NCBI GenBank assembly: GCA_001792535.1
Contig: MGGS01000016.1
Span: 160 to 64,159 of the forward strand
Direction of reading: 5' to 3'
DNA length: 64,000 nt
From: Candidatus Woesebacteria bacterium RIFCSPHIGHO2_02_FULL_42_20
GTDB lineage: Bacteria; Patescibacteriota; Microgenomatia; UBA8517
A program made the translations under genes and the position numbers. Of this stretch, positions 1-27,479 are shown one piece after another. Each line of letters starts with the position of its first letter. The first letter of the stretch is position 1. The notes below the pieces were generated by a model. It ran no database searches, had not been told where the DNA came from, and was given only the letters and a program-made list of their open reading frames with translations.

Positions 1-48
1 GAGTTCTGTAAAGAATATTGAATCGCTTTACCACTAGTTATATTTCTT

Positions 49-678
49 TTAAATTCCAAACTTCTCAGACAAAAATTTAATTACTTTCTCGCCCAAAATT
101 TTGTGACCTTCAGAGTTTGGGTGCGCCGCATCAACAAGTAAGTCCTTGAATCCTAGTGCCAGCAAATTATCAAACAACTCCAACTTCTCTACTTTGGATT
201 TTTTGCATATTTCGCTTATAAATCCATCATACTTTCTAACTTCATCGTTGCTAAGAAGTAAACCTTTGGATTTTTGAGGGTTAACAGGAGTCAGGCCAAT
301 GAAAACTACTTCACAGTTAAAATCTGTCGATAATTTTATCAATCGTTCAAGCGCTTTTTTAAAATCCCTTTCAGGAGTCTGTTTGCCTTTTCTCCAATTG
401 TTAGGGCAGCTGTCGTTAATCCCTGTCGCAAAAATAACCAACACTTCATCCTCGGAGTCAACCAGACGAATCGCCAATTCACTTTTGACTCTCTCCGGTA
501 GCTCAATAGCAAGCTCGCCCGGAACCCCCAGATTATAAACCTGGAAATTATTTTCGCTGGCTAAGTTATATTTCTCGTCGATATAACGGCGAACACGCGC
601 AACCCAGCCACCTTCCCTATCCCACTTGCCGTAAGCAATGCTGTCGCCGAAAACAAAAATTTTATCTAACATTGTCAA
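49..678 (-). CDS. SGNH/GDSL-family hydrolase
   Basis: N-terminal GDSIAYG (GDS block), central GINDS, C-terminal DAAHPNSEGH (DxxH catalytic block); 209 aa. Confidence 0.75.
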   Translation of the reverse strand: MTMLDKIFVFGDSIAYGKWDREGGWVARVRRYIDEKYNLASENNFQVYNLGVPGELAIELPERVKSELAIRLVDSEDEVLVIFATGINDSCPNNWRKGKQTPERDFKKALERLIKLSTDFNCEVVFIGLTPVNPQKSKGLLLSNDEVRKYDGFISEICKKSKVEKLELFDNLLALGFKDLLVDAAHPNSEGHKILGEKVIKFLSEKFGI

Positions 679-698
679 ATTATATCAAAAACTATGGA

Positions 699-717
699 GC
701 TAATTTGAAGACAAATT
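699..717. repeat. Array repeat copy 1 (GCTAATTTGAAGACAAATT; AATTTG-AAGA-CAAATT imperfect palindrome)
   Basis: Read directly; lies between stop of ORF 700..936 and start of ORF 49..678. Confidence 0.9.
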
Positions 718-936
718 CATTTTTAATCTCTTGTACTCATCAAGAATTTTTTCTGCCCAATAAGTATAATTATCCGTAATCTCGTTTATATTCAAGGTCA
801 TTTTATCCCCCAACTTTTTCTTAGCTTTAAGAAGGAAAGATATACCAACATCTTTCGATTGTTTTGCAAAACAAAATGACGCTCGATAAAGATCGGCAAT
901 TGCATCAGAAGTTTTATCAAATTTATTTAGTGCCAT
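700..936 (-). CDS. hypothetical small protein (78 aa)
   Basis: ORF overlapping upstream 112-aa ORF by 10 nt (operon-like pair); no recognisable motif. Confidence 0.35.
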   Translation of the reverse strand: MALNKFDKTSDAIADLYRASFCFAKQSKDVGISFLLKAKKKLGDKMTLNINEITDNYTYWAEKILDEYKRLKMNLSSN

Positions 937-1265
937 AATTTTCCAAAGTACCTTTTTATAATATCATGAAATTCTTTTCGAATCTTTGAATTCAATATTT
1001 CCAAGTTATCGTTATTTAATCGAGGCCGAATGTTCAGGACTGCTGTCGTATCGATTTGCTTGTCAAAAAAATTAATTCCTCCACCCCAAATATCGTTTTG
1101 TCTGCTTCCCTTTTCAAGTAAAACCTTTTCGCCGTCAGCATGGAGATCGCCTCCGGCGACAATCCATTCGTTCTCGACATCTACAGTAAGCTTTATATAG
1201 TTACCGTATTTTTTGCGAAAACTTAAAATTTCGGTCTTAGTTAGTTCCTTATCGACAAACTTCAT
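927..1265 (-). CDS. hypothetical protein (112 aa)
   Basis: ORF with protein-like composition; no motif I can name. Confidence 0.4.
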   Translation of the reverse strand: MKFVDKELTKTEILSFRKKYGNYIKLTVDVENEWIVAGGDLHADGEKVLLEKGSRQNDIWGGGINFFDKQIDTTAVLNIRPRLNNDNLEILNSKIRKEFHDIIKRYFGKLWH

Positions 1266-1271
1266 TGTGTT

Positions 1272-1544
1272 TTATTCAAGCTGACTCTGACTCGCGATGA
1301 TATTATCTAGTAACCCCAGACTTTCGGCTTTGCATGTACCACGCGTAATCACACCAACTCTGCGGTTCGAAGTTACACCAACGCATTCAGCGCTACAACC
1401 GGGTGCGGTACACCTCTGGGGCTCAAGATAAGCTTCTCCGCCACCCCCAGCCACAAAATTCCCGGAAATTGCAACAATAACCTTTTGGCAACTTGTTAAC
1501 AACGCTATTCTGTCTCTCAGACTCATTGATCCAGCTTCTACCAT
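1272..1544 (-). CDS. Cys-rich hypothetical protein (90 aa)
   Basis: CTAPGCSAEC...TRGTC cysteine cluster, Gly-rich GGGGEAY; possible metal/redox small protein. Confidence 0.4.
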   Translation of the reverse strand: MVEAGSMSLRDRIALLTSCQKVIVAISGNFVAGGGGEAYLEPQRCTAPGCSAECVGVTSNRRVGVITRGTCKAESLGLLDNIIASQSQLE

Positions 1545-1589
1545 TTTGAGATTATATCCCCATTTTAGCAGTATTTTACTCCGGAGCTT

Positions 1590-1605
1590 GCTTTGAAGAC
1601 AAATT
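1590..1605. repeat. Array repeat copy 2 (GCTTTGAAGACAAATT, 2-nt shorter variant); second partial copy TATTTGAAGTTTAT overlaps TTG start at 1622
   Basis: Read directly. Confidence 0.85.
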
Positions 1606-1621
1606 CTATATTATAAACTAT

Positions 1622-2263
1622 TTGAAGTTTATAATATCTAAAACTGTGTTAAAAATTTATTTAGCAAGACATGGACAAGACGAAGATAACGTCAAGGGCA
1701 TTTTGAATGGAAGAAGGGATAAGCCTTTAACCCCCAAAGGAACCGAGCAGGTAAAAGAAGTTGCAGAAAAAATTAAAGATTCCGGTCTCAACTTTGATAA
1801 AATTTATTCTTCACCTTTGAAAAGGACATATAAAACAGCTAAAATAATTTCCGAGGCACTTGGTATGGGTAAACCCTCGGTGTTGCAAGATCTTATCGAA
1901 CGCGATTTTGGAATAATGACAGGTAAACACATTAGTCAAATCGAAGAAATGTGTAAACCATATATCCTCAAAACCGAAACAATAACTTACTTTCTCAAAC
2001 CTAAAGGTGCAGAAACATTTCCCCAACTTGTTGAAAGAGGAAAAAAATTATTATCAAAAATTAGGAAGTTACACCCAAAAGGAAATATCTTATTAGTAAC
2101 TCATGGAGATATTGGAAAAACGATATATGCAGCCTACTATAATCTAAAGTGGAAAGATGTACTAACTATGTTTCACTTTGGCAACTCCGATTTACTTTTA
2201 CTTTCCAAGAATTCTCCGGCCGAGGAAGCATATGTGTTTAAAAGTGATCAATACAATTTATAG
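1622..2263 (+). CDS. histidine phosphatase (phosphoglycerate mutase-like) family protein
   Basis: IYLARHGQ (RHG catalytic motif) near N-terminus, LVTHGD later; TTG start called by ORF track (alternative GTG at 1646). Confidence 0.75.
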   Translation: MKFIISKTVLKIYLARHGQDEDNVKGILNGRRDKPLTPKGTEQVKEVAEKIKDSGLNFDKIYSSPLKRTYKTAKIISEALGMGKPSVLQDLIERDFGIMTGKHISQIEEMCKPYILKTETITYFLKPKGAETFPQLVERGKKLLSKIRKLHPKGNILLVTHGDIGKTIYAAYYNLKWKDVLTMFHFGNSDLLLLSKNSPAEEAYVFKSDQYNL

Positions 2264-2303
2264 TTTTAGACTCACATTCGTATAATATAACAAAAGTAAC
2301 AAA

Positions 2304-2690
2304 ATGAATTGGTATAAAGGAAATATTGAAGAGGAAACTTTGAAAAATAATTACTTTAGAAAAGTACTCTTTACAGGAAAGCATGCGCAGCTTGTCGTAA
2401 TGTGCTTGAAACCCGGAGAAGAAATTGGCTTGGAAGCGCATGAGAATGTAGATCAGTTTTTCAGGTTTGAAAAAGGCTCGGGAAAAGTTATAGTTAACGG
2501 TGAAGGAAAAACTGTAAACGATGGAGACGCCGTGATAGTCCCAGCCAGCAGCGAACACAATATCGTCAATGCTTCAGTTAGTCAAGATCTGAAACTTTAC
2601 ACAATCTATTCTCCACCCAACCATCCGGACGGGACTGTACACAAAACAAAGGCTGAAGCGGACAAAGCCGAAGAACACGAGAGTCACTAA
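2304..2690 (+). CDS. cupin domain protein
   Basis: G-x-E-x-H-x-N ... VPASSEHNIVN two-His cupin motifs, 128 aa. Confidence 0.7.
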   Translation: MNWYKGNIEEETLKNNYFRKVLFTGKHAQLVVMCLKPGEEIGLEAHENVDQFFRFEKGSGKVIVNGEGKTVNDGDAVIVPASSEHNIVNASVSQDLKLYTIYSPPNHPDGTVHKTKAEADKAEEHESH

Positions 2691-2797
2691 GTCAATTCCT
2701 CCGCGGGCCTAGAGTCCACGGTTTCTTTGAAACTGATATGACAAATTAATTTTCAATCTTTTATGTTCATTGGAAATTTTTTTAATTCTCACAAGTA

Positions 2798-3520
2798 TCA
2801 ACTATAAACTTTTTGGGTATCAAATATTAGCTGCTCCAGATGATCAAACATATCTTCATTAATCCCGTATTTTACCTTTTCATCTTCACTTATTGTCATG
2901 TTGAACCCAACCCTCAGAGATCTTAAATTATCAATAATATCTCGATGTAATAGTCTATTTAACAGGACGCCAATTCTATCTTTATCCACACTTTGCATTC
3001 TGCCTTTTCTAAAAGAATCGAGTATGTGGGTTAATTCATTGATATTTAGTTCAACTTCCGCCCAGGATGCCAGCGTCTGCAGTAAGTATGTCTCGCCCTC
3101 AGTTAATTTTATGGGCTTTGTGTCTTTGATACAAAAAACGCCTACTTTCTTGCCATCAATAGAATGTATAGGCACTCCTGCATAAAAGCGGATATACGGG
3201 GGACCCGCTACCATTGGATTGTCGGCAAAACGATTATCTTTTTTAGTATCGTCAATGACAAGAATGTCATTGGTTAATATTGCATGGCCGCAAAACGATA
3301 TCATTCTATCCCTCTCTCTTTCTGATACTCCATGGCAGGACTTATACCACTCGCGATTTGAATCAACTAAGGTAATTGTTGAAATCGATACCTTGAACAT
3401 TCGTAGCGCTGTCAAAGTAATGCGATCAAAGCGGGCTTCCAGTGGGGTATCCAGAATTTTCAATCCTTGTAAAGAGGCTAATCGCTGTATCTCGTCGTCA
3501 GCTATAGCAGACGACTGCAT
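2798..3520 (-). CDS. GAF domain-containing protein
   Basis: N-terminal GAF-like region (LQTLASWAEVEL, FCIKDTKP, YAGVPI), 240 aa. Confidence 0.6.
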   Translation of the reverse strand: MQSSAIADDEIQRLASLQGLKILDTPLEARFDRITLTALRMFKVSISTITLVDSNREWYKSCHGVSERERDRMISFCGHAILTNDILVIDDTKKDNRFADNPMVAGPPYIRFYAGVPIHSIDGKKVGVFCIKDTKPIKLTEGETYLLQTLASWAEVELNINELTHILDSFRKGRMQSVDKDRIGVLLNRLLHRDIIDNLRSLRVGFNMTISEDEKVKYGINEDMFDHLEQLIFDTQKVYS

Positions 3521-3680
3521 ATAGTGTAGTTCTTAATAGTATCATTTAGAATTCACTCGCACAATAACCGGATCAATCACTCAAGTTGATTAAACTTGTG
3601 CAGCGCCAGTTAATTTCAGTAGTATTGCATTCAGTAGACGTACAAATTCCTAAGAAAGCAACCAGGTATAGACCGGGTGA

Positions 3681-3700
3681 TATTAATTTGAAGACAAATT
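3681..3700. repeat. Array repeat copy 3 (TATTAATTTGAAGACAAATT)
   Basis: Read directly; ends 2 nt before stop codon of BrnA-like ORF. Confidence 0.9.
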
Positions 3701-3702
3701 GT

Positions 3703-4014
3703 TTAGATAGTTATCGAAGTTTTACCCTCGGCATACTTGTGAATTAGTACATTTAAAAGCCTTTGGTAAGGGATATTAACTCTTTTTGCCTTTGCTTTAA
3801 CTTTAATAATATCCTCATTTTTCACTCTCAATGTTATTCTTTTCGTCTTTTGTAATTCCAAAAAGTTTTTCGCAGATTCTTCAAGCTCTTTTTTCCTTTT
3901 TTCAAAGTTTTTAATAGATACAAATTCACCCTTTTCTAGGAATTCCTCTAGCTCCATTTCGTAATCATCTAGGGGAAATTCATCAAAATAATCTTTCTTC
4001 TGTTTTTTATTCAT
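3703..4014 (-). CDS. brnA: BrnA-like antitoxin (CopG/RHH type)
   Basis: C-terminal ITLRVKNEDIIKVKAKAKRVNIPYQRLLNVLIHKYAEG typical of BrnA; overlaps upstream toxin ORF by 4 nt (ATGA). Confidence 0.65.
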   Translation of the reverse strand: MNKKQKKDYFDEFPLDDYEMELEEFLEKGEFVSIKNFEKRKKELEESAKNFLELQKTKRITLRVKNEDIIKVKAKAKRVNIPYQRLLNVLIHKYAEGKTSITI

Positions 4015-4292
4015 ATTTTTAAATACTTCTTCTTCAAATTTCTATTCGGATAAATCGTTTTTAAAAATCTAACTTTTCTTACTTTATCAATTACATATGG
4101 CACAGCATATACTTTATTTTTTATACTTACTATCAAGATCCTCTGATTGGGATATCTCCTCTTGTTAAAGTGATCAATATCATCCAGAACTTTCCCGCTT
4201 TCAATCGCTTCAATAATTTCTTCAAAACCGACTCCCCTTGTTGCTTTTATTATTAAGTTTTTCTCTTCAGGGTAATCAAATTTATACTTCAT
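4011..4292 (-). CDS. brnT: BrnT-like ribonuclease toxin (DUF497)
   Basis: KFDYPEEKNLIIKATRGVGFEEIIEA resembles BrnT N-terminus (FEWDxxKNxxNxxKHGxSFEEA); toxin-first order as in BrnTA. Confidence 0.65.
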   Translation of the reverse strand: MKYKFDYPEEKNLIIKATRGVGFEEIIEAIESGKVLDDIDHFNKRRYPNQRILIVSIKNKVYAVPYVIDKVRKVRFLKTIYPNRNLKKKYLKI

Positions 4293-4384
4293 ATACTAAT
4301 AGTTCGTACATCCGTTGTCAAGACATTATTAATTGTAATTGCTCTTCAAATACCCGCTTAACAATTCTATCACTTTCTATCGAA

Positions 4385-4403
4385 GCTAACTTGAAGACAA
4401 ATC
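4385..4403. repeat. Array repeat copy 4 (GCTAACTTGAAGACAAATC)
   Basis: Read directly. Confidence 0.9.
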
Positions 4404-4449
4404 TACCCTTGTAACTCATTTACACTTCCGGCTGCCGGTAATAGAGGTA

Positions 4450-4898
4450 TTACATCCTTTCTGCAAATTCCCGTCCCTTGAGCAAACCATTCTTTGCCAA
4501 TATTGCTCGCACATCTTTCTTTAACATCTCTTTCTTTTCATCTTTAGATAGTCTTGTTAAACCAACAGGAATTTCTACTCCGTTTGTTTCCACATTCTTA
4601 AATTCACTAGATATCCGTAACATCTCTGGTCTTCTTTTCAGTCCTTTTCTTTCCAGTCTTCTTGCCTTGAGTAAAAACATTCTAAACTGCATCCTGTTTC
4701 AGCAATTCTAAATCTGAAAACATCAGGGTCCCAAGGTAAAGATAAAGCAGATAAACCGGCTCTACTTTCTCTAATGTCAAATCTATCCCACCTTATTTCC
4801 TCAACGGATAATCCCAATCTTTGAGAAATGAACTGTTTAGCATCATCCAGAGACGGCGCATCTTTATTAGCTTCACTTTCTAAAACACCTTCTGTCAT
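4450..4898 (-). pseudogene. small hypothetical gene apparently frameshifted (two overlapping ORFs, 86 aa + 80 aa, different frames)
   Basis: ORFs 4638..4898 and 4450..4692 overlap by 55 nt in different frames; no recognisable family. Confidence 0.3.
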
Positions 4899-4931
4899 AT
4901 TTATATTACTGTTAATTCATTCTATTTCTAA

Positions 4932-4950
4932 GCTAATTTCGAGACAAATT
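4932..4950. repeat. Array repeat copy 5 (GCTAATTTCGAGACAAATT)
   Basis: Read directly; overlaps stop codon of VapC ORF. Confidence 0.9.
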
Positions 4951-5319
4951 ATTAAGCAGTTTCTTGTCAAATGATGCTATCTTGCCTTTGTTTACTTCGG
5001 CCCACGAAAGTAGATAACTGTCAACAAAATGTAAGTTTCTTCTGTAAAAATCCCACAAAGAAAGCAGGACTTCTCTTTCTTCGACTCTTAACCACTTCTG
5101 AGAAAGAAAGGTTTCCATCGACTCCGCTATATCTTCCCTATTATTTTTATAAAATGATTCGAGGACAAAGACAACTTCACTTATGACGAGCGCTTTTATT
5201 ATCAGTTTTGACTTTCCTTTTTGCACGTTTTCAAATAACTTTCTGGCATTTTGGTATTGAGATTCAATGTCTCCTACCAAATATCTTAGGATTACATTGG
5301 TGTCAACTATTTGCTCCAT
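4933..5319 (-). CDS. vapC: PIN-domain toxin VapC
   Basis: IVDTNVILRYL N-terminal PIN acidic motif, 128 aa, overlaps upstream antitoxin ORF. Confidence 0.75.
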   Translation of the reverse strand: MEQIVDTNVILRYLVGDIESQYQNARKLFENVQKGKSKLIIKALVISEVVFVLESFYKNNREDIAESMETFLSQKWLRVEEREVLLSLWDFYRRNLHFVDSYLLSWAEVNKGKIASFDKKLLNNLSRN

Positions 5320-5564
5320 TGTTTCACTAAGCTTTTACCAAATTCTTTCCTTGCTTTTCTTAAATCCGAATCGGAAAGTTTTATCCCTGTATTTAAAGAT
5401 CCTCCAAGTGACCAAAAATCCTTTTTTAACTCCACCTCTAATTTATCAGCCTTCTTTCTAATAACAGCCTTGACCGGCCCGTTTACCCCTAGTGAGCGAA
5501 GCATTATTTGCGGGACAGTCAATTGGCCTTGACTGGTAATCGAAACTACTTTTTGCATTTCCAT
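5307..5564 (-). CDS. vapB: AbrB/SpoVT-family antitoxin (VapB-like)
   Basis: VVSITSQGQLTVPQIMLRSLG swapped-hairpin beta-barrel motif; start placed at internal Met (MEMQK...), ORF track extends to 5594. Confidence 0.6.
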   Translation of the reverse strand: MEMQKVVSITSQGQLTVPQIMLRSLGVNGPVKAVIRKKADKLEVELKKDFWSLGGSLNTGIKLSDSDLRKARKEFGKSLVKQWSK

Positions 5565-5770
5565 TATCATACTGAGATAATAATGTAATGTCAATTGTTA
5601 TTGTTTCATTACTACAACCAAATCTTACAATAAATAGCCTACCGAAAATGCGGTCAAAAATGTTAAATATCATTCTCCAGTTATCCAGATGCAATATTTG
5701 AATATCAACTTTTGATTAACAGCTTGTTTACAAAACCCACATTCAGATTCTACCACGATTTCTAAGCAAG

Positions 5771-5788
5771 GCTAATTTGAAGACATTT
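5771..5788. repeat. Array repeat copy 6 (GCTAATTTGAAGACATTT, right arm degenerate)
   Basis: Read directly; copy nearest the recombinase gene. Confidence 0.85.
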
Positions 5789-5861
5789 TTCTAGTTTCGT
5801 TTTTGCAGATTTTTGGAAATTTACAGTAGATAAACAGTCCAACTTTGAGTAACATTTAGTC

Positions 5862-7431
5862 ATGGAACCGGAGGACACCGACAAATCGGTTTTACAGGAA
5901 CAATCGCGGACAATATTTTACGATCTTAGACAGAACTTAATAAAACTGCGTTCGCAAGACCAATCAGGTGAAAATACAGAAAGTCTAGCTGCAAAAGTTG
6001 CAGAGTTAATGACAAGGTTATACGACTACCACCTATCTTTGTATCAACTTTCCGGAAAATCATTTAATTCTGCAGGTCCATTTTGGAATGGCTAATCAAT
6101 ACTCACGAAATTTGAGTAAAAATGTAAAGCGTGGGAATCAATACAGATTCCATAACAAATAGCAGTGGCTTGGACCCGCAAAGATTGGGTGGCTTAACGT
6201 TACTAACCCCGATACACAGGAGAAGGGAATAGTTGTTGACCCAGATAGATTTCCTCTGATTGTTAAGGGGATTCGGCTCATTATCACCGGCGCACACACT
6301 CCAATGCAGGTTTTGCACAAGCTTAATAACGAATGGGGCTTCAGGACCAGGATAACAAGGCGTCAGGGAGGTAAGCCACTAAGTAAGAGTGCTTGGTATA
6401 AACTATTAGCAGATCCCTATCTTTACGGACTAATGATCCGCAGCGAAGGGGAGGAAATAGGAAACCATAAACCTGTGCTTAGTAAGGACGATTTTGATAA
6501 ACTACAAATTATGTTAGGGCGTAAGGGGAAACCGCGGGTAGCAAAACACGAATTTGCCTATAAAAAAGAGGTGCTTAAATGTGGGGAATGCGGCGGGTCG
6601 GTGACAGCCGAAGAACACTGGCAGATTATTTGCCCGGAGTGTAGAACAAAGTTCAATAAGGCCAAGACAGCCGATAGGTGCAAGGGGTGCGAGCTTCTGA
6701 TTGAGGAGATGAAAAATCCAAAGATTCTCCACTATGTTCACTATCATTGCACAAAACGTATCAACCCAAAATGTGCACAACGCAGTATTCCGCTACATAA
6801 ACTTGAAAAACAGATTGACGAGGAACTTTCAAAGTTTGAAATAAAAGAGGAATTTAAGGACTGGGCAATCCAGTATTTGAACGAGTTAAACGATAATGAG
6901 GTTAAAGAACACTATGTAAGCCGAAATAATACCGGAGAAGCCCTCAAGGATACTATAAAGAGGCTGGATAGCCTTACCAAACTCTTTATATCGCCACAAA
7001 ACTCCGAAAGAGAGCTGATGACGGAGGAAGAATACTCCTCACAGCGCAAACCCCCTCTTGAAGAAAAGGAGAGCTTGGCATGATTAGCAAAGGAAATAGA
7101 CCAACAACAGGATAACTGGCATGATCTAATAGTAAATACCTTCAACTTTGCGTGTTATGCGCGTTACTGGTTTGCTAAGGGTGATTTAAAGGAGAAAACC
7201 GAGATACTCGGCGCACTTGGTTCGAACCTTACAATAACAGACAAAAAACTGTGTGTTGACGGTCTAAATCCATTTTTGATCATCGCGGACGAAAGGAGTA
7301 AAGTAGAAGAATTGTCCAAAATGTTCGAACCTGCAATAAAGCCTGATTTGTCGCACCGAAGTGCCCCTCTCAAAGAGCTTTGTCAATCTTGGCTGGCCGT
7401 TTACAAAAAATGTCGAACTTCATTTGATTAG
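5862..7431 (+). pseudogene. large serine recombinase, decayed (frameshift near 6013-6095, in-frame TAG at 6160-6162 and TGA at 7081-7083)
   Basis: Frame-1 translation 6163..7431 gives recombinase-domain-like GWLNV..., zinc beta-ribbon CGECGGSV...CPEC and coiled-coil tail; upstream fragment ...ANQYSRNLSKNVKRG resembles end of resolvase catalytic domain; 115 stop-free codons continue past the TGA. Confidence 0.65.
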
Positions 7432-7552
7432 CTCGCCTCGCCCCGCTCGGCTCGCAATGTGAGCGCGGCGTACATGTAACTTCGTTACAGTATAAACCCC
7501 TTTACCCTGAAAAACTCCTCAGAGTTTTTTACGGGCACCCGCCGTGCCTCCG
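7388..7552. repeat. Left arm of perfect 165-bp inverted repeat
   Basis: 7388..7552 is the exact reverse complement of 8776..8940 (checked base by base); contains hairpin AAAAACTCCTCAGAGTTTTTT at 7510..7530. Confidence 0.95.
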
Positions 7553-7575
7553 TTATTTTTTGCGCGCGCGATTTT

Positions 7576-7608
7576 CTCGCCCTTCGGGCGAGGAGAGTTT
7601 TGTTATTT
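7576..7608 (+). terminator. Rho-independent terminator-like hairpin (CTCGCCC-TTC-GGGCGAG followed by T-rich run)
   Basis: 7-bp GC-rich stem, 3-nt loop, then GAGTTTTGTTATTTT; just inside left IR at 3' end of ORF 7608..8417. Confidence 0.4.
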
Positions 7609-8417
7609 TAATCCTGGATTAATTGGAAGTCACTACAGTGCTTTTTAGAATCAGATGACAGGGTACTGAGATTTTGTGGTAGGGAGGTAATATATTTTTT
7701 TATGGCTTCTGGTAAATTTTTAGTGGAAGAAACTATTTCGTTGAAACGTTCTTGAGACCAACCGTAATAGAAACACGACTCTAGATTCCAAGTGTTAGCG
7801 CCACTAGCCAAACTCAATAATTTACCAATACCCTCACCACTACCGGCACCGTAAGTATCTACCACCATAACGTATAACTTTCCGTTTTGATAATCCATTA
7901 GGTAAGGATTATTACTCGATCCAGAAAGATCTTTGATGTGTGTAAATATTTTCCAAATACTGTCGTTTTTATTTGCATACAAAATACCGGAAATATCTCC
8001 TGATCGGACTATGTTCATATTCCCTTTTTGAAAGATTGCATATTCAACACCATTAAAAGTATATGTTTTATCAACTTGATCAGGCATTATTGAGGTGGGA
8101 ACATTCCTATTTAAAACCAGAGGTCTGACGTTAGTTACCACAAAATGTCCTATCTTGTCCCCTTTGCTATATCCTGATTTATTTACATAGCCTGCAATAA
8201 TTGTCTCTTTACCTATTTGGCTTTCCAACTCAGGCCATACATTGTTTTTGCTAGGTTTAATAATCAGTTTAAAATTTTGAGGCGTATCTTCAAAACTAAG
8301 CGTGCTCAAAGTAGACTTCGTTAATTTAAATTCGTAGTCATCGTCGATAAATGGATTTGTCCTTTTGTTTACCTGAAGAGGGCTTAGTTTGTAAAGTTCG
8401 TATATACCAGGCTTCAC
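7608..8417 (-). CDS. hypothetical protein (269 aa), sole ORF inside the IR-bounded module
   Basis: GTG start preceded by in-frame TAA; no recognisable catalytic motif (not an obvious DDE/serine/tyrosine recombinase). Confidence 0.5.
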   Translation of the reverse strand: MKPGIYELYKLSPLQVNKRTNPFIDDDYEFKLTKSTLSTLSFEDTPQNFKLIIKPSKNNVWPELESQIGKETIIAGYVNKSGYSKGDKIGHFVVTNVRPLVLNRNVPTSIMPDQVDKTYTFNGVEYAIFQKGNMNIVRSGDISGILYANKNDSIWKIFTHIKDLSGSSNNPYLMDYQNGKLYVMVVDTYGAGSGEGIGKLLSLASGANTWNLESCFYYGWSQERFNEIVSSTKNLPEAIKKYITSLPQNLSTLSSDSKKHCSDFQLIQD

Positions 8418-8775
8418 TTATCACAGCAACCACTAAAAGGATTACCAGAAATATCCAGTAATTAATTTTGATACTCTTTACACTTTTTGGGGCCATATTC
8501 GCAATGTCCATTTCCATATGTAATCTAAGTATAACAAATTTAAGACATGATCATTTTCGTGAATGTCTTGTTGCTTTTGTATTACAAGTTTTGGTATATT
8601 TTAGTTGGACTCAACTTTTACCAATTGCTATTTTTAATGGCGCATTTGGACAATCTGAGCAATCGGGTTGAGTCCACCGGATGCGCCATTTGAGATTTAT
8701 AAAAGTTCTTTAAAATTTTTGCGTTTTTTCTAGACAAAATCAGAAATGATTTTGTCTTATACGAGCCGACAGTTT

Positions 8776-8940
8776 CGGAGGCACGGCGGGTGCCCGTAAA
8801 AAACTCTGAGGAGTTTTTCAGGGTAAAGGGGTTTATACTGTAACGAAGTTACATGTACGCCGCGCTCACATTGCGAGCCGAGCGGGGCGAGGCGAGCTAA
8901 TCAAATGAAGTTCGACATTTTTTGTAAACGGCCAGCCAAG
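8776..8940. repeat. Right arm of perfect 165-bp inverted repeat
   Basis: Exact reverse complement of 7388..7552; includes last 13 codons of ORF 8901..9212. Confidence 0.95.
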
Positions 8941-9212
8941 GATTCGAACGTATTTGTCGAAACCTGCTGTATACCTGAAACTTCAGAACTCGGAGTCGGA
9001 GTAGCAGAAATATCTTTTTGGTGCTCATAAACCGCCACGCCCACAGCTGTCGTCCCTGCCACAACTGTGCCGGCAAGCAAAATTTTGCCGAGTAACGTTC
9101 CGAATATAGCGGATATAAATTGGCCGACTTGTATTGTATCGGCGCTCAGGCCCAAAAACTCCCGTAGTTTAGACGTCTTTTTCTTCTCCTCCATTTCAAA
9201 GTGAGTATACAC
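8901..9212 (-). CDS. hypothetical small membrane-associated protein (103 aa)
   Basis: Hydrophobic stretch AIFGTLLGKILLAGTVVAGTTAVGVAV; C-terminus encoded inside right IR. Confidence 0.4.
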   Translation of the reverse strand: MYTHFEMEEKKKTSKLREFLGLSADTIQVGQFISAIFGTLLGKILLAGTVVAGTTAVGVAVYEHQKDISATPTPSSEVSGIQQVSTNTFESLAGRLQKMSNFI

Positions 9213-9321
9213 CTGGAGACTAAAAAATTTCTATGTTATCCTGTTGCAAACCAAATCTTTCTTTAAATTTCCGGCGCTATTTTGCACAACTTAAATATCT
9301 TGATTGTTGTAAAATTCAAGA

Positions 9322-10500
9322 ATGAAACGAAACATAAAAATTACCTACTTACTAAGCTATCTTAAACACTCATGGTTTTGGATCGGCATTTGGGTTTTTT
9401 ATTATTTGCGATTCACCGACTACGCAGGTATAGGCCTAATTGAAACCGTCATGATTGGCACAATGTCTTTATCAGAAATACCCACAGGTGCCATCGGAGA
9501 TTTATTTGGTAAAAGAGTTACCCTTTTTATAGGCTTTTTCATGGAATCCGCGGGAAATTTTATAATGGCTTTTGCGCCCAATTTTAATGTTTTGGTCCTG
9601 TCTGTTATTATAATGTCTTTTGGCGGATCAATGTACTCGGGTACGTCAGAGGCACTTGCTTACGACTCGCTAAAACAAATCGGCAAAGAACGAAATTACA
9701 ATAAAGTCACAGCAAACTCACAATCTTTTCAATGGATTGCCGTTACACTTACAGGAATAATAGGAGGGCTTTTATACAAAATTAACCCTTCGTACCCGTT
9801 TATAGCTTCGGGAATTTTCTTTTTTATTGGAGCGCTATTATGCCTTTTAATACACGAGCCCAGAATTGATACCGAAAAATTTTCTATTAGAAATTTCATA
9901 AATCAAAACAAGATCGGACTTAGAAGCTTATTTATAAATAGCGAAGTGAAACGGCTAACACTTTTTCTCGCGGCGATAGGAGCAATAATAGTTCTTTCTT
10001 GGGAAATGCTTGATGGTATATTAGGGATGGAGTTCGGCTATGATCCGCTAGGTCTTTCCGTTTTGTCGGCAGTTTTGTTTTTAGCAGCGGCTGGGGCATC
10101 ACAATTGACTGCGTTTTTACATGAAAGGTTCGGGGCATCAAAAGCAATAATATTTCTCGCAATAATAACAATTGTTACTTTTTTAGTGTCACCTATTGCC
10201 GGCCTTATTATCGGAGGACTAAGTTTAATTCTTCGGTCAGCAGTACAAACGATAATAGTGAACTTAACTTCCGTTGTGATAAATGAGAACGTAGAATCAA
10301 AATATCGAGCTACAGCGCTTTCATCTTTTAATATGTTTAAAAACCTGCCTTACGTTCTGTCGGCCTATCTTCTTGGCAGCTTGATGGATACAATAACTGC
10401 CAGAAATTTTGCCTTTGTTTTAGGGGTATTGCTCGGAACACTACTTCTAATTAATAGTATTAGAACTAAAAATACCAGTAAACGTTATGCTAAAATGTAG
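9322..10500 (+). CDS. MFS transporter
   Basis: ~12 predicted TM segments; MFS-like G-x-x-x-D-x-x-G-K-R motif (GAIGDLFGKR). Confidence 0.75.
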   Translation: MKRNIKITYLLSYLKHSWFWIGIWVFYYLRFTDYAGIGLIETVMIGTMSLSEIPTGAIGDLFGKRVTLFIGFFMESAGNFIMAFAPNFNVLVLSVIIMSFGGSMYSGTSEALAYDSLKQIGKERNYNKVTANSQSFQWIAVTLTGIIGGLLYKINPSYPFIASGIFFFIGALLCLLIHEPRIDTEKFSIRNFINQNKIGLRSLFINSEVKRLTLFLAAIGAIIVLSWEMLDGILGMEFGYDPLGLSVLSAVLFLAAAGASQLTAFLHERFGASKAIIFLAIITIVTFLVSPIAGLIIGGLSLILRSAVQTIIVNLTSVVINENVESKYRATALSSFNMFKNLPYVLSAYLLGSLMDTITARNFAFVLGVLLGTLLLINSIRTKNTSKRYAKM

Positions 10501-10502
10501 AC

Positions 10503-10883
10503 ATGAAAATTATTAAAAAAGTCTACAAAATAAAATCTTCGGTCGAAAAAGTATGGGATGCGCTAACTAATCCAGTGACTATGGACAAATGGGGCGCAAA
10601 CTCCGCCAAAATGAGCGACAAGCAAGACTTTGAGTTTTCGCTTTGGAATGGAGATATCTGGGGAAAAAACACAGAGGTTGTCTCCGGCAAAAAACTGGTG
10701 CAGGAGTGGTTTGCAGGAAAATGGTCCAAGCCTTCCATTGTTACTTTTACTTTGTCCGAAAAAGACGGAGTCACTACTCTGGCTTTGGTACATACCGGTG
10801 TCCCGGAAAAAGAGTTTGATTCGATAAATACTGGCTGGGACAGTTTTTACCTGGGAGAAATCAAAAAACTTCTTGAGCCTTAG
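10503..10883 (+). CDS. SRPBCC (AHSA1/START-like) domain protein
   Basis: 126 aa with N-terminal VEKVWDALTNPVTMDKW and TGW/WD patterns typical of the Aha1-like family. Confidence 0.6.
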   Translation: MKIIKKVYKIKSSVEKVWDALTNPVTMDKWGANSAKMSDKQDFEFSLWNGDIWGKNTEVVSGKKLVQEWFAGKWSKPSIVTFTLSEKDGVTTLALVHTGVPEKEFDSINTGWDSFYLGEIKKLLEP

Positions 10884-11233
10884 TTAAATAATTCTCGTTT
10901 TAATAAATTAAGTGCCTCTACTAATAGTTTTCTGTTTTTTTCATTGTGTTTCCAGATGCTTGCTCCCGATGGGTGTGGTAGTGGAATTATCGACAGCTCT
11001 TTTTCCAATAAATTATACGGATCCAACTTGTACATATTCCCAATTACACTGTTTAATTGGCTAAACTGCATATCCAGACAATAACAAATAGATAATTTTC
11101 CAACAGGAACAACTAACTGCGGATTAAAATCTGAGATTCCAATTGAATAAAGCCAGTTGTTTAGCGTCGGCCAGTCATGCAAATCGCTCTTGTTTCTGGG
11201 CATCGCCTGGCCAATAAAAATTGCCCGCTTCAT
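10880..11233 (-). CDS. short uracil-DNA glycosylase-like protein (tentative)
   Basis: IPLPHPSGAS resembles UDG motif B (HPSP); N-terminal GQAMP resembles motif A, but at 117 aa it is much shorter than canonical UDGs. Confidence 0.3.
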   Translation of the reverse strand: MKRAIFIGQAMPRNKSDLHDWPTLNNWLYSIGISDFNPQLVVPVGKLSICYCLDMQFSQLNSVIGNMYKLDPYNLLEKELSIIPLPHPSGASIWKHNEKNRKLLVEALNLLKRELFN

Positions 11234-12261
11234 TACAGGTTTTCTTTGAAAAACTCCACTGTCCGTTGCATAGCGGTCGTAAAACTTAATCCCGTAAGAT
11301 TGTGGCCACCTGAGGGATATTCAAATAGCTCGTGGCTTATCTTTGTGTCGTCTAATATCTCCATTAAATCACGACTGTAGCCGATGTTCACCACCCCATC
11401 GTCTACGGCGTGATGTATTTGAACAGCGCCACCTACACCAGCCAAATAATTCGTGGGGACAACTTGGTACCAAAAGTCGCTCGTGGGGTTGAAATCGCCA
11501 TGAGTATTTCTAAGCTCCTCGCGCTTTTTTCTCCTTTCGGATTCTTGAGGCGGAGGCTGATAACTGTTATCGCTAATTCTATACTTTTGCATGTCTTCAT
11601 AACTGTAAACTGCACCCGCCCAAATGACCACAGCCCGAATATCCTGCAACGCTACAAGGCTTCTAAAGACAATGTTGCCAGCCATCGAGTGACCCCAAAG
11701 GCCAATTTTGGCCTGATCAACAAAGTCCGCACCAAAAAGAGCGGCACGCGCATTCAGAGTATCAATAATATAATCTCCCGAATAATAAGCTCCACTGGCA
11801 ACGCCCTCTGATTTAGCATGCCCCCGCAGGTCAATTTTGAAAACCACAAAACCATTTTTTGCCAAATAATCAACGTAAGAATTATAGTTAGCTGTCGTCT
11901 TGTAACTTGCCGGAGGGATGTAGCCGTGGATAAAAATAATCGCCGGCCAGGGGGGTGAACCCGTCGAAGGCACAGTTATAAGTCCGTTTATCTTTAGACC
12001 ATCCGAGTTATAGCTTGTCAAATAAGAAGTGTATTGAGTGTTTTCGGAATATTTTTCAAGATTACCTAACTTACTCTCGTAAGTTCTTTCCCGTAAATAC
12101 GGAAGTGTAATTTTCCTAAACTCAAGTGATATAGAATTAACCGGTTCGGAAGTTTTCTGAGGAGCCGAAACCCCTCCGGTTGACACAGAAATTTGCATTC
12201 TCGATAGCACATAGAAAATCACTGCCGTAGCTGTCACAAACCCCAACAATTTTTTTGACAT
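11233..12261 (-). CDS. secreted alpha/beta hydrolase (dienelactone hydrolase/S9-like)
   Basis: N-terminal signal-like hydrophobic segment; nucleophile elbow GHSMAG; later H in VQIHHAVDD. Confidence 0.65.
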   Translation of the reverse strand: MSKKLLGFVTATAVIFYVLSRMQISVSTGGVSAPQKTSEPVNSISLEFRKITLPYLRERTYESKLGNLEKYSENTQYTSYLTSYNSDGLKINGLITVPSTGSPPWPAIIFIHGYIPPASYKTTANYNSYVDYLAKNGFVVFKIDLRGHAKSEGVASGAYYSGDYIIDTLNARAALFGADFVDQAKIGLWGHSMAGNIVFRSLVALQDIRAVVIWAGAVYSYEDMQKYRISDNSYQPPPQESERRKKREELRNTHGDFNPTSDFWYQVVPTNYLAGVGGAVQIHHAVDDGVVNIGYSRDLMEILDDTKISHELFEYPSGGHNLTGLSFTTAMQRTVEFFKENL

Positions 12262-12310
12262 CCGTATAGTTTACAATAAATGTACAATACTGTCCGAAGA
12301 GCTCTTTTAG

Positions 12311-13111
12311 TCAATTTTTAAACAAAAGGCTTAACAAAAAGGCAGAGATTGATATTAAAACAACAATTGGTCCCGGCGCCACCCCTAAAGATTGTGCAAC
12401 CAGTATTCCGCAAGCGGCCGAAGCCACACCAATAACCGAAGACATTATCTGAAAACTTCTAACACTTTTTGTCATGTTTTTCGCAGCTACGGCGGGAACG
12501 ATTACTAATGCACCCGTCAAAAGCGTTCCTACAAACTTCACGCCGAGTGCAACAACCAGGCCAACCAAAAGAAGATATGCAAGGTTTACTTTGTGCATTT
12601 TGACGCCCATCGACCGGGCCAGATCTTCCGAAACTACCCCAAGGAGCAGCCTGTCAGACAACTTCATTGCACCAAAGAAAATCAAAATCGATCCGCAAAT
12701 CGTTACTAATCCGTCAAACAAATTTATATTTTCAATATTGCCAAAAAGAGCTTCGAGCAATTCCGGCTCCGGTGTTATTAAAATTCCCATTGCCAAACTT
12801 GCAGTAAAGAAAACCCCGACCAAGGCTTCAGAGTAAACTTCCGTCTTTTCCCCTAAATACCAAATTCCGAAAACCGCAAAAGTCAAAGCCATTATCGCCC
12901 CGACAATGGGGTTTAGGGAAAACGTGAGTGCAATCGCCATTCCGGGAAGAGCCACATGGCTTAAAGCATCACCAACCAAAGACATTCTCTTTAAAACCAT
13001 AAAAGACCCCAGTAATCCCGAAGATGCTCCCACTAAAGATCCCACCAATATAAGGAAAATTGTATTAGCCATTGTGCTGATGTTCGTGATGTTTAAAAAA
13101 GTTAACCTCAT
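12311..13111 (-). CDS. metal (Zn/Mn) ABC transporter permease, ABC-3 family
   Basis: Multi-TM; conserved LVGDALSHVALPG motif of ZnuB/MntB-type permeases. Confidence 0.8.
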   Translation of the reverse strand: MRLTFLNITNISTMANTIFLILVGSLVGASSGLLGSFMVLKRMSLVGDALSHVALPGMAIALTFSLNPIVGAIMALTFAVFGIWYLGEKTEVYSEALVGVFFTASLAMGILITPEPELLEALFGNIENINLFDGLVTICGSILIFFGAMKLSDRLLLGVVSEDLARSMGVKMHKVNLAYLLLVGLVVALGVKFVGTLLTGALVIVPAVAAKNMTKSVRSFQIMSSVIGVASAACGILVAQSLGVAPGPIVVLISISAFLLSLLFKN

Positions 13112-13799
13112 CCCCGTAAAGCCGATTTAAGCTTGTTTTATCTATGGCGCTTCGGGGTGGACCAAAACACACCTTCTCTTTATTTAAACAAAGTACGTTC
13201 GCAGCATACTTATAAACAACCTCCAACTCGTGAGATATAAAAATAATAGTCAAATCTTCTTCTTCTTTTAATTTACTTATCAAGCTGTAGACCGTTTCTT
13301 CCGCAGATATATCCACACCGCTAGTAGGCTCGTCGAAAAGCAAAACATTAGGTCTACCAAGTATCGCAAAAGCAATTAGCACCCTCTGGAGCTCTCCACC
13401 GGACAATACTCCCAATTTTGTTCCTAAAAGCCGGCTTCCTCTGTGAATGGAGTGCAAATTATCACTTCCAAATCCCACTTTAATTAACGCCTCCTCAACT
13501 TTTAAGTGATCCTTCTCCTTAAACGACAAAAATTCATCCACGGTAAGCGGAACGTCTTTATCTACATACAACTTTTGAGGAACATAGCCAATAGTAGCAC
13601 CGCTCGCCCAAATCACTTTTCCCTTGTACGGTAATAAACCCAAAATGCATTTAAACAATACAGTTTTACCTGCGCCATTCGGGCCGATAATTGCCAGCGT
13701 GTCGTCCTTTTTAACATCAAAGGAAATATCTTCAAGAATTTTGTGGCCGTCAAATACTACATTTAAACCGGTTACTTTGAGTAATAAATCGTCTGTCAT
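13065..13799 (-). CDS. metal ABC transporter ATP-binding protein
   Basis: Walker A GPNGAGKT, ABC signature LSGGELQR, Walker B LLLFDEP. Confidence 0.85.
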   Translation of the reverse strand: MTDDLLLKVTGLNVVFDGHKILEDISFDVKKDDTLAIIGPNGAGKTVLFKCILGLLPYKGKVIWASGATIGYVPQKLYVDKDVPLTVDEFLSFKEKDHLKVEEALIKVGFGSDNLHSIHRGSRLLGTKLGVLSGGELQRVLIAFAILGRPNVLLFDEPTSGVDISAEETVYSLISKLKEEEDLTIIFISHELEVVYKYAANVLCLNKEKVCFGPPRSAIDKTSLNRLYGDEVNFFKHHEHQHNG

Positions 13800-13863
13800 T
13801 CCAAACCATTAAACAAATAAATGGCAAATCCCGTAAAATTCCAGTTTGTATTTTTTGCAATTT

Positions 13864-14217
13864 TCATTGACTAGATGGCTGTTGGAAGGCTTGTTGTGGC
13901 TTAGAGTCTGCTTCCATCAGCGAGTATACTTCGGTATAGCCACCGTTATGTTGGTGTGGTGCACTTCTAGCAATGTCCAGCGCTTCATTAAACGAGTCAA
14001 GGTTTACTACCATATAGCCGCCCGCCCCGTCTATAATGCTAGAAACGTGGTTTTCGGGCCCCTGGACTTTTTTTTGTTCTTCGGCAAAGGGCATGCCCGA
14101 CTCATATTTACCCTCGTTTGTTAACCCCTGGATCCAGGTTTTCCATTCTTCCATGTGGGTGACCTTTGTTTCGGGCGTCGGGTCCCCGCCTTTAAATACT
14201 AACAAAAACTTCGCCAT
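13864..14217 (-). CDS. YciI-like (YCII-related) domain protein
   Basis: 117 aa; GGYMVVNLDSFNEALDIARSAP resembles YciI family core. Confidence 0.55.
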   Translation of the reverse strand: MAKFLLVFKGGDPTPETKVTHMEEWKTWIQGLTNEGKYESGMPFAEEQKKVQGPENHVSSIIDGAGGYMVVNLDSFNEALDIARSAPHQHNGGYTEVYSLMEADSKPQQAFQQPSSQ

Positions 14218-14245
14218 ATATATCTCAAAATTAGTTTAACCAAAG

Positions 14246-14764
14246 TTATCCTGGATAGCAATTGGGCCAGAGATAACTTTTACCTACTGAAATTGCATAC
14301 GCTGCCGTTTGAGTCGCTTCTTCGGCGTTATAACGAAGGCCTAAGTTTGCATCTTCACCCATCGCAGACCTACTAGTTTTCCACGCACCCGGGCCGAACT
14401 GAAAAAGACCAACATAAACCCCATTAGTCGAATTTGCAATCAGTCCAGACTCGCAAATAGCCAAGTGTCGCAAGACATTCACGTCCACGCCGTACTGGAG
14501 CGCAAAGCGTACCAAAAATTCTTGTATTTGCTCTTGGTTAAATTGAGGTGGAGGAATTACGGTAGGGACCGGTGATTGAGTAGGCGTGGAAACCGGCGAA
14601 GGAGTTTTGGCCAAAAGCCGATCAGTCTCTGGCTGAGAACTCGGTACAGCGCCTGGAGTAAGGCTCGGTTCGGTAGGTTCCCTCTTATACCATCTGGTAA
14701 ACCAAGCAGCAAACATCACCGCTAAAAGGCATTCCAGTAAAAAAAACTTCTGCCAAGGTTTCAT
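14246..14764 (-). CDS. Rpf-like transglycosylase domain protein, membrane-anchored
   Basis: N-terminal TM, Pro/Thr-rich linker, C-terminal ICESG...YVGLFQF...AW (transglycosylase-like/Rpf signature). Confidence 0.6.
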   Translation of the reverse strand: MKPWQKFFLLECLLAVMFAAWFTRWYKREPTEPSLTPGAVPSSQPETDRLLAKTPSPVSTPTQSPVPTVIPPPQFNQEQIQEFLVRFALQYGVDVNVLRHLAICESGLIANSTNGVYVGLFQFGPGAWKTSRSAMGEDANLGLRYNAEEATQTAAYAISVGKSYLWPNCYPG

Positions 14765-14770
14765 AATTTA

Positions 14771-15088
14771 CTACTTTTGAAGGGCAGCGGCAGTTACCAA
14801 CAAGACAAGAAAAAACAAGCAAAGCCAAGCCGTCGTGTAAACGACCAAATTAATCGCCTCACGTTTTTTGTCATTGAAAAATAGTTTATAAGGCCTGTAA
14901 AATACAATCAGCCCGCAAACCAGACCTGAAACTATAAAAAGCACCAAAAAAGCTACTGGACCTAAGTAACTAGGAACTTTGCCAAAAATTTCATTCCCCC
15001 TCCAAAAAAGCAATCCCACCAAGCCACAATAAAATGTAATTCCAAGTGACTGAAGAAGAGCCATCAATTTCAGAGAGCTTTTACCCAC
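14771..15088 (-). CDS. hypothetical membrane protein (105 aa)
   Basis: Three hydrophobic segments. Confidence 0.4.
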   Translation of the reverse strand: MGKSSLKLMALLQSLGITFYCGLVGLLFWRGNEIFGKVPSYLGPVAFLVLFIVSGLVCGLIVFYRPYKLFFNDKKREAINLVVYTTAWLCLFFLVLLVTAAALQK

Positions 15089-15132
15089 AAATCAATTATA
15101 CTACCCGGGGCAAGCTGTGCTAAACTGACAGC

Positions 15133-15399
15133 ATGAACAAAGTAATTAAAAGAGACGGTAACGTGGAAGATTTTGACACCGGGAAAATTGAGCGGATTGC
15201 CAAAGCAGCCGGACTCAATGACGTTGACTCCCAAAAGGTTGCTAAAAATGTGGCTGAATGGGTGCTTGCTCAGGGCAAACCGGTACAGACCGTAGATATC
15301 CGAAATGAGGTCGTCAACGAATTACAAAAAGTAAATTCTTATGCGGCAAATCTTTATCTGTGGTATGAAACCACTAAATACAAGCAGGATAAAGTCTAG
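15133..15399 (+). CDS. ATP-cone domain protein
   Basis: VIKRDGNVEDFDTGKIERI matches ATP-cone N-terminal consensus (V.KRdG..e.Fd..KI). Confidence 0.55.
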   Translation: MNKVIKRDGNVEDFDTGKIERIAKAAGLNDVDSQKVAKNVAEWVLAQGKPVQTVDIRNEVVNELQKVNSYAANLYLWYETTKYKQDKV

Positions 15400-15412
15400 T
15401 CTGCAACTATTC

Positions 15413-26527: not shown

Positions 26528-27133
26528 CTACATTTCCCTCCTTCCCTCAATAGCCTGTATCAATGTCACATCATCCGCGTATTCCAAGTCTGCTCCCCTC
26601 GGTATCCCCATCCCTAGGCGCGAGACTTTGGGTTTTGGGTTTTGGGTTTTGAGTTTTTTATTAAGGTACATTGCAGTTGCCTCGCCTTCCATTGTAGGGT
26701 TAGTAGCAATAATAACTTCCTTAACAGGACCGCCATTTGTCAGTCTTTTGGACAAATCTTCGATATAAATTTCATCCGGGCCAATATTCTCTAAGGGGCT
26801 GATTGCTCCATGAAGAACATGATACAAGCCATTGTATTTTCCCATTCTTTCAATTGCAACTACATCAAGCGGTTGCTCAACTACAATAATAATTTTTGAG
26901 TCGCGGCTTGAATCACTACACAAATTACAAGGGTCGCTTTCCGAAACATTGCGGCAAATAGAACATAAAACAGTGTTTTTCTTCAGGTTAATTAGGGACC
27001 GACCAAATAAGTCAAGCTCACTTTGGGGAACATGCAGTAAATAGTATGTCAGTCGCTGGGAGGTTCTCGGCCCAATGCCGGGAAGTTTTTCAAAAGATTC
27101 GACTAAAGCTTGAACCGCTCTCGGTATCTTCAT
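26528..27133 (-). CDS. recR: recombination protein RecR
   Basis: KLPGIGPRTSQRL HhH, C4 zinc finger CSICRNVSESDPCNLC, Toprim region; start moved to MKIPRAV (ORF track extends to 27238). Confidence 0.85.
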   Translation of the reverse strand: MKIPRAVQALVESFEKLPGIGPRTSQRLTYYLLHVPQSELDLFGRSLINLKKNTVLCSICRNVSESDPCNLCSDSSRDSKIIIVVEQPLDVVAIERMGKYNGLYHVLHGAISPLENIGPDEIYIEDLSKRLTNGGPVKEVIIATNPTMEGEATAMYLNKKLKTQNPKPKVSRLGMGIPRGADLEYADDVTLIQAIEGRREM

Positions 27134-27191
27134 GTCAAGGAAATTATAGCAATTCTTAACTATCGGGGGAAATTTTAAATTGTTCTTTGGG

Positions 27192-27479
27192 CTACTGACC
27201 GAAGCCTTTGAGTATCCCGGAAAGGCCGCCGCCTGCATCCATCATTTTTTTAGCCGCTTTCTTCTGAACTTCTTTTAAAGCGGAATTGATTGCATCAACA
27301 ATATCCTTTCTCTCCTCCCCGTCAAGTTCTATTCTTATAATTTTTTGGTCACCAGAAACGACCACTTTAATACCGTCACGCTCAAAACTTTCCGTAACAC
27401 CGGCCAATTGCTTCTGAAGGTTCAACGCCTGCTGACGCATTTTAAGCAATTCTCCTGCTTGTCTTACTTTGTCGAACAT
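27192..27479 (-). CDS. ybaB: nucleoid-associated protein YbaB/EbfC
   Basis: 95 aa; MRQQALNLQKQLAGVTESF...GDQKIIRIELD pattern; conserved dnaX-ybaB-recR order. Confidence 0.85.
   Translation of the reverse strand: MFDKVRQAGELLKMRQQALNLQKQLAGVTESFERDGIKVVVSGDQKIIRIELDGEERKDIVDAINSALKEVQKKAAKKMMDAGGGLSGILKGFGQ

Follow-up and report, generated by a model that had tools for sequence, protein, structure and literature searches.

A short DNA segment between perfect 165-bp inverted repeats is found in both orientations among contigs of a groundwater Candidatus Woesebacteria population

We analysed a 64,000-nucleotide stretch of chromosomal DNA (hereafter, the window) on contig MGGS01000016.1 from Candidatus Woesebacteria bacterium RIFCSPHIGHO2_02_FULL_42_20, in which a 1.2-kb segment carrying one membrane-protein gene (hereafter, G) lies between two perfect 165-bp inverted repeats (hereafter, arms), beside a pseudogene of a large serine recombinase (LSR). 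Public contigs of this population carry the segment in either orientation, and on balance the two isomers probably coexist. The explanation that we favour, to which we give about an even chance, is that the segment, a by-product of a decaying integrated element, flips back and forth through general homologous recombination of its arms and has no function of its own.

Positions 7388–7552 are the exact reverse complement of 8776–8940 (165 of 165 positions), with 1223 nt between the arms, and the identity breaks off sharply at all four ends, outer and inner. The arm was found twice in the window when up to three mismatches were allowed, against no copies expected from 100 shuffles. The interior holds a 269-aa open reading frame (ORF) on the minus strand together with its upstream region (358 bp); in these respects the preliminary description of this DNA, made from the letters alone, was accurate.

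Exact-sequence look-up of the window proteins retrieved dozens of contigs assembled from Rifle aquifer metagenomes, including four NCBI genomes. For one Candidatus Woesebacteria population, six or more independent assemblies made with three or more pipelines read through both arms in the window orientation (Table 1). Many further contigs terminate within an arm, which is to be expected when short reads fail to resolve a repeat. The preliminary description had named a chimeric hairpin misassembly as what would overturn it, and perfect inverted repeats are indeed a classic sign of a fold-back chimera in a single contig. Against this, the long and distinct flanks are collinear in all of these assemblies, which derive from different samples and assemblers, and the structure lies 7 kb inside its contig, away from the contig end. 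We consider the chance of such a chimera negligible.

Three independent contigs (L014, L024, and L018) carry the interior the other way round. In their flanks, L014 and L024 match the window at 100% identity and L018 differs at one position, 9597; between them, the three provide both junctions of the flipped state. Counted as contigs, with arms that are probably longer than the reads, the inverted state is represented by three (n = 3) and the window state by at least 12 (n ≥ 12). Inversion by recombination between the arms, as first proposed for this locus, thus gains three contigs with the opposite interior and stops short of proof, since the arms probably exceed the reads.

Several observations weigh against flipping isomers. 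Each inverted contig spans one arm and none spans both, all three stopping at or inside the second arm. At 165 bp the arms are longer than the assumed 150-bp reads and than the MEGAHIT k of 141, so that the orientation of a contig across an arm rests on read pairs or on decisions of the assembler. The MEGAHIT contigs that cross the arms (L001, L005, and L009) differ from the window solely inside the arms over 12–20 kb, by T>G at 8791, 8814, 8824, 8832 or the mirror site 7537 (A>C on the other arm). L009 has, in addition, one G>T at 8889. As a result of these differences, the identical stretch falls below k (141 bp) in L001 and L009. The T>G changes sit just after a GGC-rich hairpin (GGCACGGCGGGTGCC) and are probably a sequence-specific Illumina error that let the assembler cross the repeat, indicating that assemblers behave oddly at this locus. 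Furthermore, the perfect identity of the arms is explained equally well by a very recent duplication, with neither flipping nor gene conversion, and recA was not seen within the window. Neither microhomology nor a second recombinase remnant that might account for the inverted copy was found at the arm ends.

Two further observations concern base changes at the arms. A diversity-generating retroelement was considered for the adenine-specific A>C changes and rejected, given that no reverse transcriptase was found, that these are the sole differences over 12–20 kb, and that their context is error-prone. Separately, contig L015 (ERZ27254791) has four substitutions within 26 bp (7545, 7548, 7568, and 7570) across the inner boundary of the left arm, which may reflect either strain variation or an artefact of assembly.

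Alternatively, the repeat could be real but the segment always in the window orientation, with the three inverted contigs arising as artefacts of assembly. Where a repeat exceeds k, a de Bruijn graph is the same for both orientations, and a contig may leave the arm the wrong way. The termination of all three contigs at or inside the second arm, the length of the arms relative to reads and k, and the crossing of the arms by MEGAHIT only where 'variants' bring the identical stretch below 141 bp all fit this reading, and the four curated NCBI genome scaffolds (4 of 4) have the window orientation at the junctions that they cover. It is harder to reconcile with the origin of the inverted contigs in three samples and at least two pipelines (one JGI assembly and two ANAN16 scaffolds, the latter assumed to be orientated by read pairs), with their coverage of both flipped-state junctions, and with the expectation that assemblers using read pairs should not misorient a 1.2-kb segment without supporting pairs. 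A fixed orientation appears to us rather unlikely.

To establish which arm is native, we turned to relatives of the locus. In contig L030, an intact LSR of 508 aa, with Resolvase, Recombinase, and zinc-ribbon domains, is arranged tail-to-tail with a homolog of G (72% amino-acid identity). The 125-bp spacer between them aligns with window positions 7395–7610, final LSR codons included, and the two have in common a hairpin (CTCGCCC-GAAG-GGCGAG), an AAAATCGCGCGCGCAAAAAA stretch, a G+C-rich block, and the last LSR codons, which read ECFRKNSNLF in L030 and AVYKKCRTSFD in the window, each followed by the stop. The two LSRs share only ~20% identity, yet these last codons and the flank are common to both. 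No long inverted repeat was found in L030, nor any counterpart of the arm upstream of its G homolog. Long inverted repeats were likewise absent from L027, L034, L037, and L038, where the longest inverted pairs measured 39 and 31 nt (72–74% complementarity) or were lacking altogether. Judged by sequence comparison, the left arm is the native LSR 3′ end with its flank, because L030 has the same arrangement of G, flank, and LSR without a second arm; the right arm is, on the same comparison, a secondary inverted copy specific to this population.

The 121-bp flank within the left arm is rich in G+C and in hairpins (fold z = −2.7 to −3.5) and contains a palindrome, TGTAACTTCGTTACA (7475–7489), and a hairpin, GGCAC..GTGCC (7533–7549). 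No RNA family was found in or near the arms with Rfam (gathering thresholds over the whole window; E ≤ 1 over 7200–9300), and ARAGORN with thresholds lowered to 80% detected no tRNA or tmRNA remnant in 7300–9000, with only junk appearing at 70%. The outer end of the arm falls within ~10 bp of the point at which conserved LSR sequence yields to flank-encoded codons, which by analogy would place position 7388 close to a junction of the attachment-site type.

Given this arrangement, we suggest the following course of events for flipping by general homologous recombination. The LSR gene would once have stood tail-to-tail with G, with the hairpin-rich spacer between them; it is now dead. The final 44 bp of the LSR gene and 121 bp of the spacer would have been copied, in this lineage alone, in inverted orientation to the far side of G, giving the order flank, arm, G segment, inverted arm, and flank. 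RecA-dependent exchange requires just a few tens of bp, and the arms offer 165 bp at 100% identity; this should suffice for RecA-type exchange to flip the 1.2-kb segment occasionally and hold both isomers in the population, while the same exchanges, via gene conversion, would keep the arms identical. RecR (26528–27238) and DprA (50910–51569), which act together with RecA, are both encoded in the window.

The adjacent LSR gene is, as far as its reading frame can tell, dead, because no catalytic domain is detectable and two in-frame stops interrupt it. Residues 155–506 of its relatives align to 6175–7368 (tblastn, ~26% identity), and no catalytic resolvase domain could be detected upstream of the aligned part. 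The stops lie near 6160 and at 7084–7086; the frame supported by homology runs over 6304–7083 and on past the TGA at 7084 to a stop at 7429–7431, ending in SWLAVYKKCRTSFD. An alternative genetic code with TGA as a sense codon was ruled out, as many long ORFs are clean in translation table 11. With its catalytic domain lost, the LSR is predicted not to catalyse the flip.

The enclosed gene is decaying as well. In L001 (ERZ4903072), 404 extra bp at window position 8364/8365 (L001 8593–8994) restore a continuous 430-aa ORF, and the corresponding frameshifting deletion, with its junction at 8364/8365, is present in the window and most of the remaining assemblies; in GCA_001792415.1 the position falls in an N-gap. 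The alignments identify the deletion as a polymorphism within the population. Full-length G is anchored in the membrane at its N-terminus, the rest of it is mostly beta-strand, and it is probably exposed at the surface; its AlphaFold model is of low confidence (pLDDT 57.8). No Pfam family was found for G, and a search of 5.8 billion sequences returned five relatives.

Flipping would have no obvious regulatory effect, because the upstream region of G moves with it and, in either orientation, each end of the segment meets the same arm sequence. A TATACT-like box ahead of the G start codon (ATG) lies inside the segment and is conserved across the window, L030, and L027. The two neighbouring ORFs are directed towards the segment, and a flip leaves the 165 bp at each end as they were; the only difference lies in which distant upstream unit, the orphan ORF at the right or the LSR pseudogene, could read through an arm into G. 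At the inner end of the left arm, positions 7553–7607 contain a hairpin and T-run that are terminator-like on the plus strand. A regulatory role for the segment is probably absent, because the recombinase and the enclosed gene are both decaying.

These properties bear on the interpretation of the locus as a phase-variable switch, as the preliminary description had offered. We compared it with invertons and phase switches such as hin/gin/cin/pin, fimS, the promoter invertons of Bacteroides, and the hsdS shufflons (PMC11602134, PMC7672463). Like the classical examples, it has inverted repeats around a putatively invertible segment beside a recombinase gene, with both orientations seen among contigs of one population. 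Classical invertons have repeats of ~10–35 bp that are the recombinase sites, an intact invertase, and a flip that moves a promoter or swaps coding ends. Here, in contrast, the repeat is 165 bp with identical arms, the recombinase is a pseudogene without its catalytic domain, G and its promoter-proximal region lie inside the segment so that nothing is reconnected, and G is broken in most assemblies. The idea of an inverton-like switch was not supported by this comparison.

A programmed inversion could still be driven by a recombinase encoded elsewhere that acts on sites in the arms and phase-varies G as a surface protein. A candidate site exists, namely an imperfect dyad (GTTTACA-A5-TGTCGAAC) that the outer ends of the arms carry at 7398–7418 and 8910–8930 and that is retained in L030 and L027, with changes on both sides. 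The segment also adjoins a recombinase gene and is seen in both orientations, G is membrane-anchored and probably surface-exposed, and LSRs of this family end their ORFs inside attachment sites. Site-specific systems need only ~30–50 bp, however, which leaves 165 bp of perfect identity without an explanation; the repeat was in none of the relatives examined, no promoter or coding part is reconnected by the flip, and G is frameshifted in most assemblies. The adjacent LSR has no detectable catalytic domain, and a scan of 30 ORFs of 150 aa or more (20–57 kb) and of the genes with precomputed Pfam hits up to ~20 kb turned up no other recombinase. We regard a programmed inversion as improbable. One particular form, in which the arms are the working sites of the Patescibacteria LSR family and an intact member in trans inverts the G segment and keeps the long arms identical, strikes us as slightly less probable again. 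A second att-like site suspected outside the right arm (8941–8963) was dropped, as it was not among the top-scoring window matches to the arm dyad.

The other early suggestion was a young mobile element with 165-bp terminal inverted repeats and one passenger gene. Perfect terminal inverted repeats around a single gene are what such an element would show. However, target-site duplications looked for outside 7388 and 8940 were not found, there being no direct repeat at 7387/8941 (flanks ...GTCAAT / arm ... arm / GATTCG), no transposase domain was detected, and the sole gene encodes a membrane protein without a Pfam family. The left repeat is moreover the native LSR 3′ end and flank, contiguous with the G homolog in L030 without a second repeat. 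The arm has only its two copies in the window, and a 29-mer from it had no exact match in two public collections (genome_contigs and metagenome_contigs), both of which evidently lack the source genome. A transposable element is very unlikely on this evidence.

The locus has more in common with flip-flop isomerisers such as plastid inverted repeats, the 2-micron plasmid, and inverted IS or rrn copies, in which long identical inverted repeats likewise bracket a segment with two orientations. In such systems recombination and gene conversion keep the repeats identical, and the inversion itself is usually neutral. The yeast 2-micron plasmid has 599-bp repeats and a dedicated recombinase, FLP, whereas the neighbouring recombinase here is dead. 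The repeat described here is also much smaller (165-bp arms and a 1.2-kb segment), and its isomers are inferred from contigs, not from mapping or gels. With LSR-integrated islands and prophages, the locus shares a recombinase gene at the edge of an accessory block and a family of ORFs ending in tRNA-derived attachment sequence; it differs in that no attL/attR pair was identified and the LSR is a pseudogene. Conservative site-specific recombination, furthermore, creates no 165-bp duplication. An integron would have the tyrosine integrase IntI, in contrast to the serine-family recombinase found here, and what had first been called a cassette array proved to be toxin–antitoxin and other small genes, with no repeated attC-like sites in 1–16000. 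Overall, the locus lacks defining features of an inverton, a transposon, or an integron and behaves like a flip-flop between long inverted repeats, with no new mechanism implied.

If the isomers are real, they would represent a clear case of DNA inversion within a population of an uncultured, ultra-small bacterium of the candidate phyla radiation (groundwater Candidatus Woesebacteria); we are aware of no described case of within-population inversion in such bacteria. General recombination between short duplicated flanks would then be a way in which these reduced genomes are reshuffled. The locus also calls for caution in assembly, in that a repeat slightly exceeding the read length causes short-read assemblers to break or invert a segment, and MEGAHIT contigs crossing such repeats carry error-like base changes exactly there.

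Table 1 Features of the locus (window positions) and contigs that carry the arms.
Feature or contig	Position or source	Strand	Remarks
LSR pseudogene	6175–7431	+	Matches residues ~155–506 of relatives (recombinase and zinc-ribbon parts)
Left arm	7388–7552	+	Native copy by sequence comparison; last 14 codons and stop of the LSR pseudogene (7388–7431), then 121 bp of flank
Segment between the arms	7553–8775		1223 bp; both orientations among public contigs
Inner left flank	7553–7607	+	T-run, GCGCGCGCG, hairpin CTCGCCCTTCGGGCGAG, T-run; kept beside the G homologs in L030 and L027
269-aa ORF	7608–8417	−	C-terminal remnant of the 430-aa G gene; 358 bp upstream within the segment
59-aa ORF	8338–8517	−	N-terminal G remnant with transmembrane anchor; out of frame with the 269-aa ORF
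Right arm	8776–8940	−	Secondary inverted copy of the left arm by sequence comparison; joined to the 3′ end of the orphan ORF
Orphan ORF, 103 aa	8901–9212	−	Last 12 codons in the right arm; tail AGRLQKMSNFI and stop
L003	JGI 3300025323		Spanning, window orientation; 100% identical to the window over 20.5 kb
L011	ANAN16 scaffold of SAMN03842439		Spanning, window orientation
L020	GCA_001793255.1		Spanning, window orientation; NCBI genome
L002	GCA_001792415.1		Spanning, window orientation; NCBI genome
L009	ERZ4903137		Spanning, window orientation; MEGAHIT
L001	ERZ4903072		Spanning, window orientation; MEGAHIT
L014	ANAN16 scaffold, SAMN03842436		Inverted interior; left flank, full arm, reversed interior
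L024	JGI 3300025317		Inverted interior; left flank, full arm, reversed interior
L018	SAMN03202994		Inverted interior; reversed interior, full arm, right flank

Many LSRs in this Patescibacteria family (P0007–P0125) end with VTPRGIEPRLPG- or GDPMGIRTPD-like peptides. Such C-termini read like antisense tRNA 3′ ends, suggesting that the ORFs run into tRNA attachment sites. In L037 (7480–7760), a tRNA-Glu(ttc) gene is 130 bp away from the LSR, whose ORF repeats 14 nt of the tRNA 3′ end (GTGAAGGCACGGGG) at its own 3′ end. The habit of LSR ORFs of ending in attachment sites may be a clue to the origin of the inverted copy.

The relatives showed several other features around G. Compared with L030, the window spacer has ~65 extra bp (about 7471–7536, mirrored in the right arm) with two palindromes, TGTAAC-TTC-GTTACA and AAAAACTC-CTCA-GAGTTTTT, and this looks like a small inserted palindromic unit. 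L027 (GCA_023245415.1) has no LSR; upstream of its G homolog is a diverged arm-like unit (7588–7781) that includes a 43-bp remnant of an LSR 3′ end. On either side of the L027 G homolog is a direct repeat of 20 nt, AAATCGCGCGCGC(T)AAAAAAA (9352–9372), which may be an old attachment core. Reading the L027 arrangement as a circular permutation that marks the attachment core was tried and failed to explain the inverted copy. All four contigs of the relative with the intact LSR stop about 15–310 bp upstream of the G homolog, and an ORF at L030 1–207 (minus strand) resembles, by eye, the N-terminal helix-turn-helix of an IS transposase; assemblies may be broken by another repeat upstream of the L030 G homolog. 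A search for the orthologous locus via an MFS protein returned a single short, uninformative contig.

The genes to the left of the locus are toxin–antitoxin and other small genes (PIN, CopG-like), and the LSR gene lies at the edge of this block of small accessory genes. On the right, the orphan ORF has no homologs beyond this population and is possibly not a real gene. Both neighbours had been described as sharing their last 12 codons; this was not borne out, the tail in the right arm being used by the orphan ORF only, while the LSR frame ends as given above. Elsewhere in the window, the ORF for ThyX (Thy1; 43623–45395, minus strand) is 590 aa long with two matched stretches. This is far above the usual length of ThyX and may reflect a duplication, a fusion, or an insertion.

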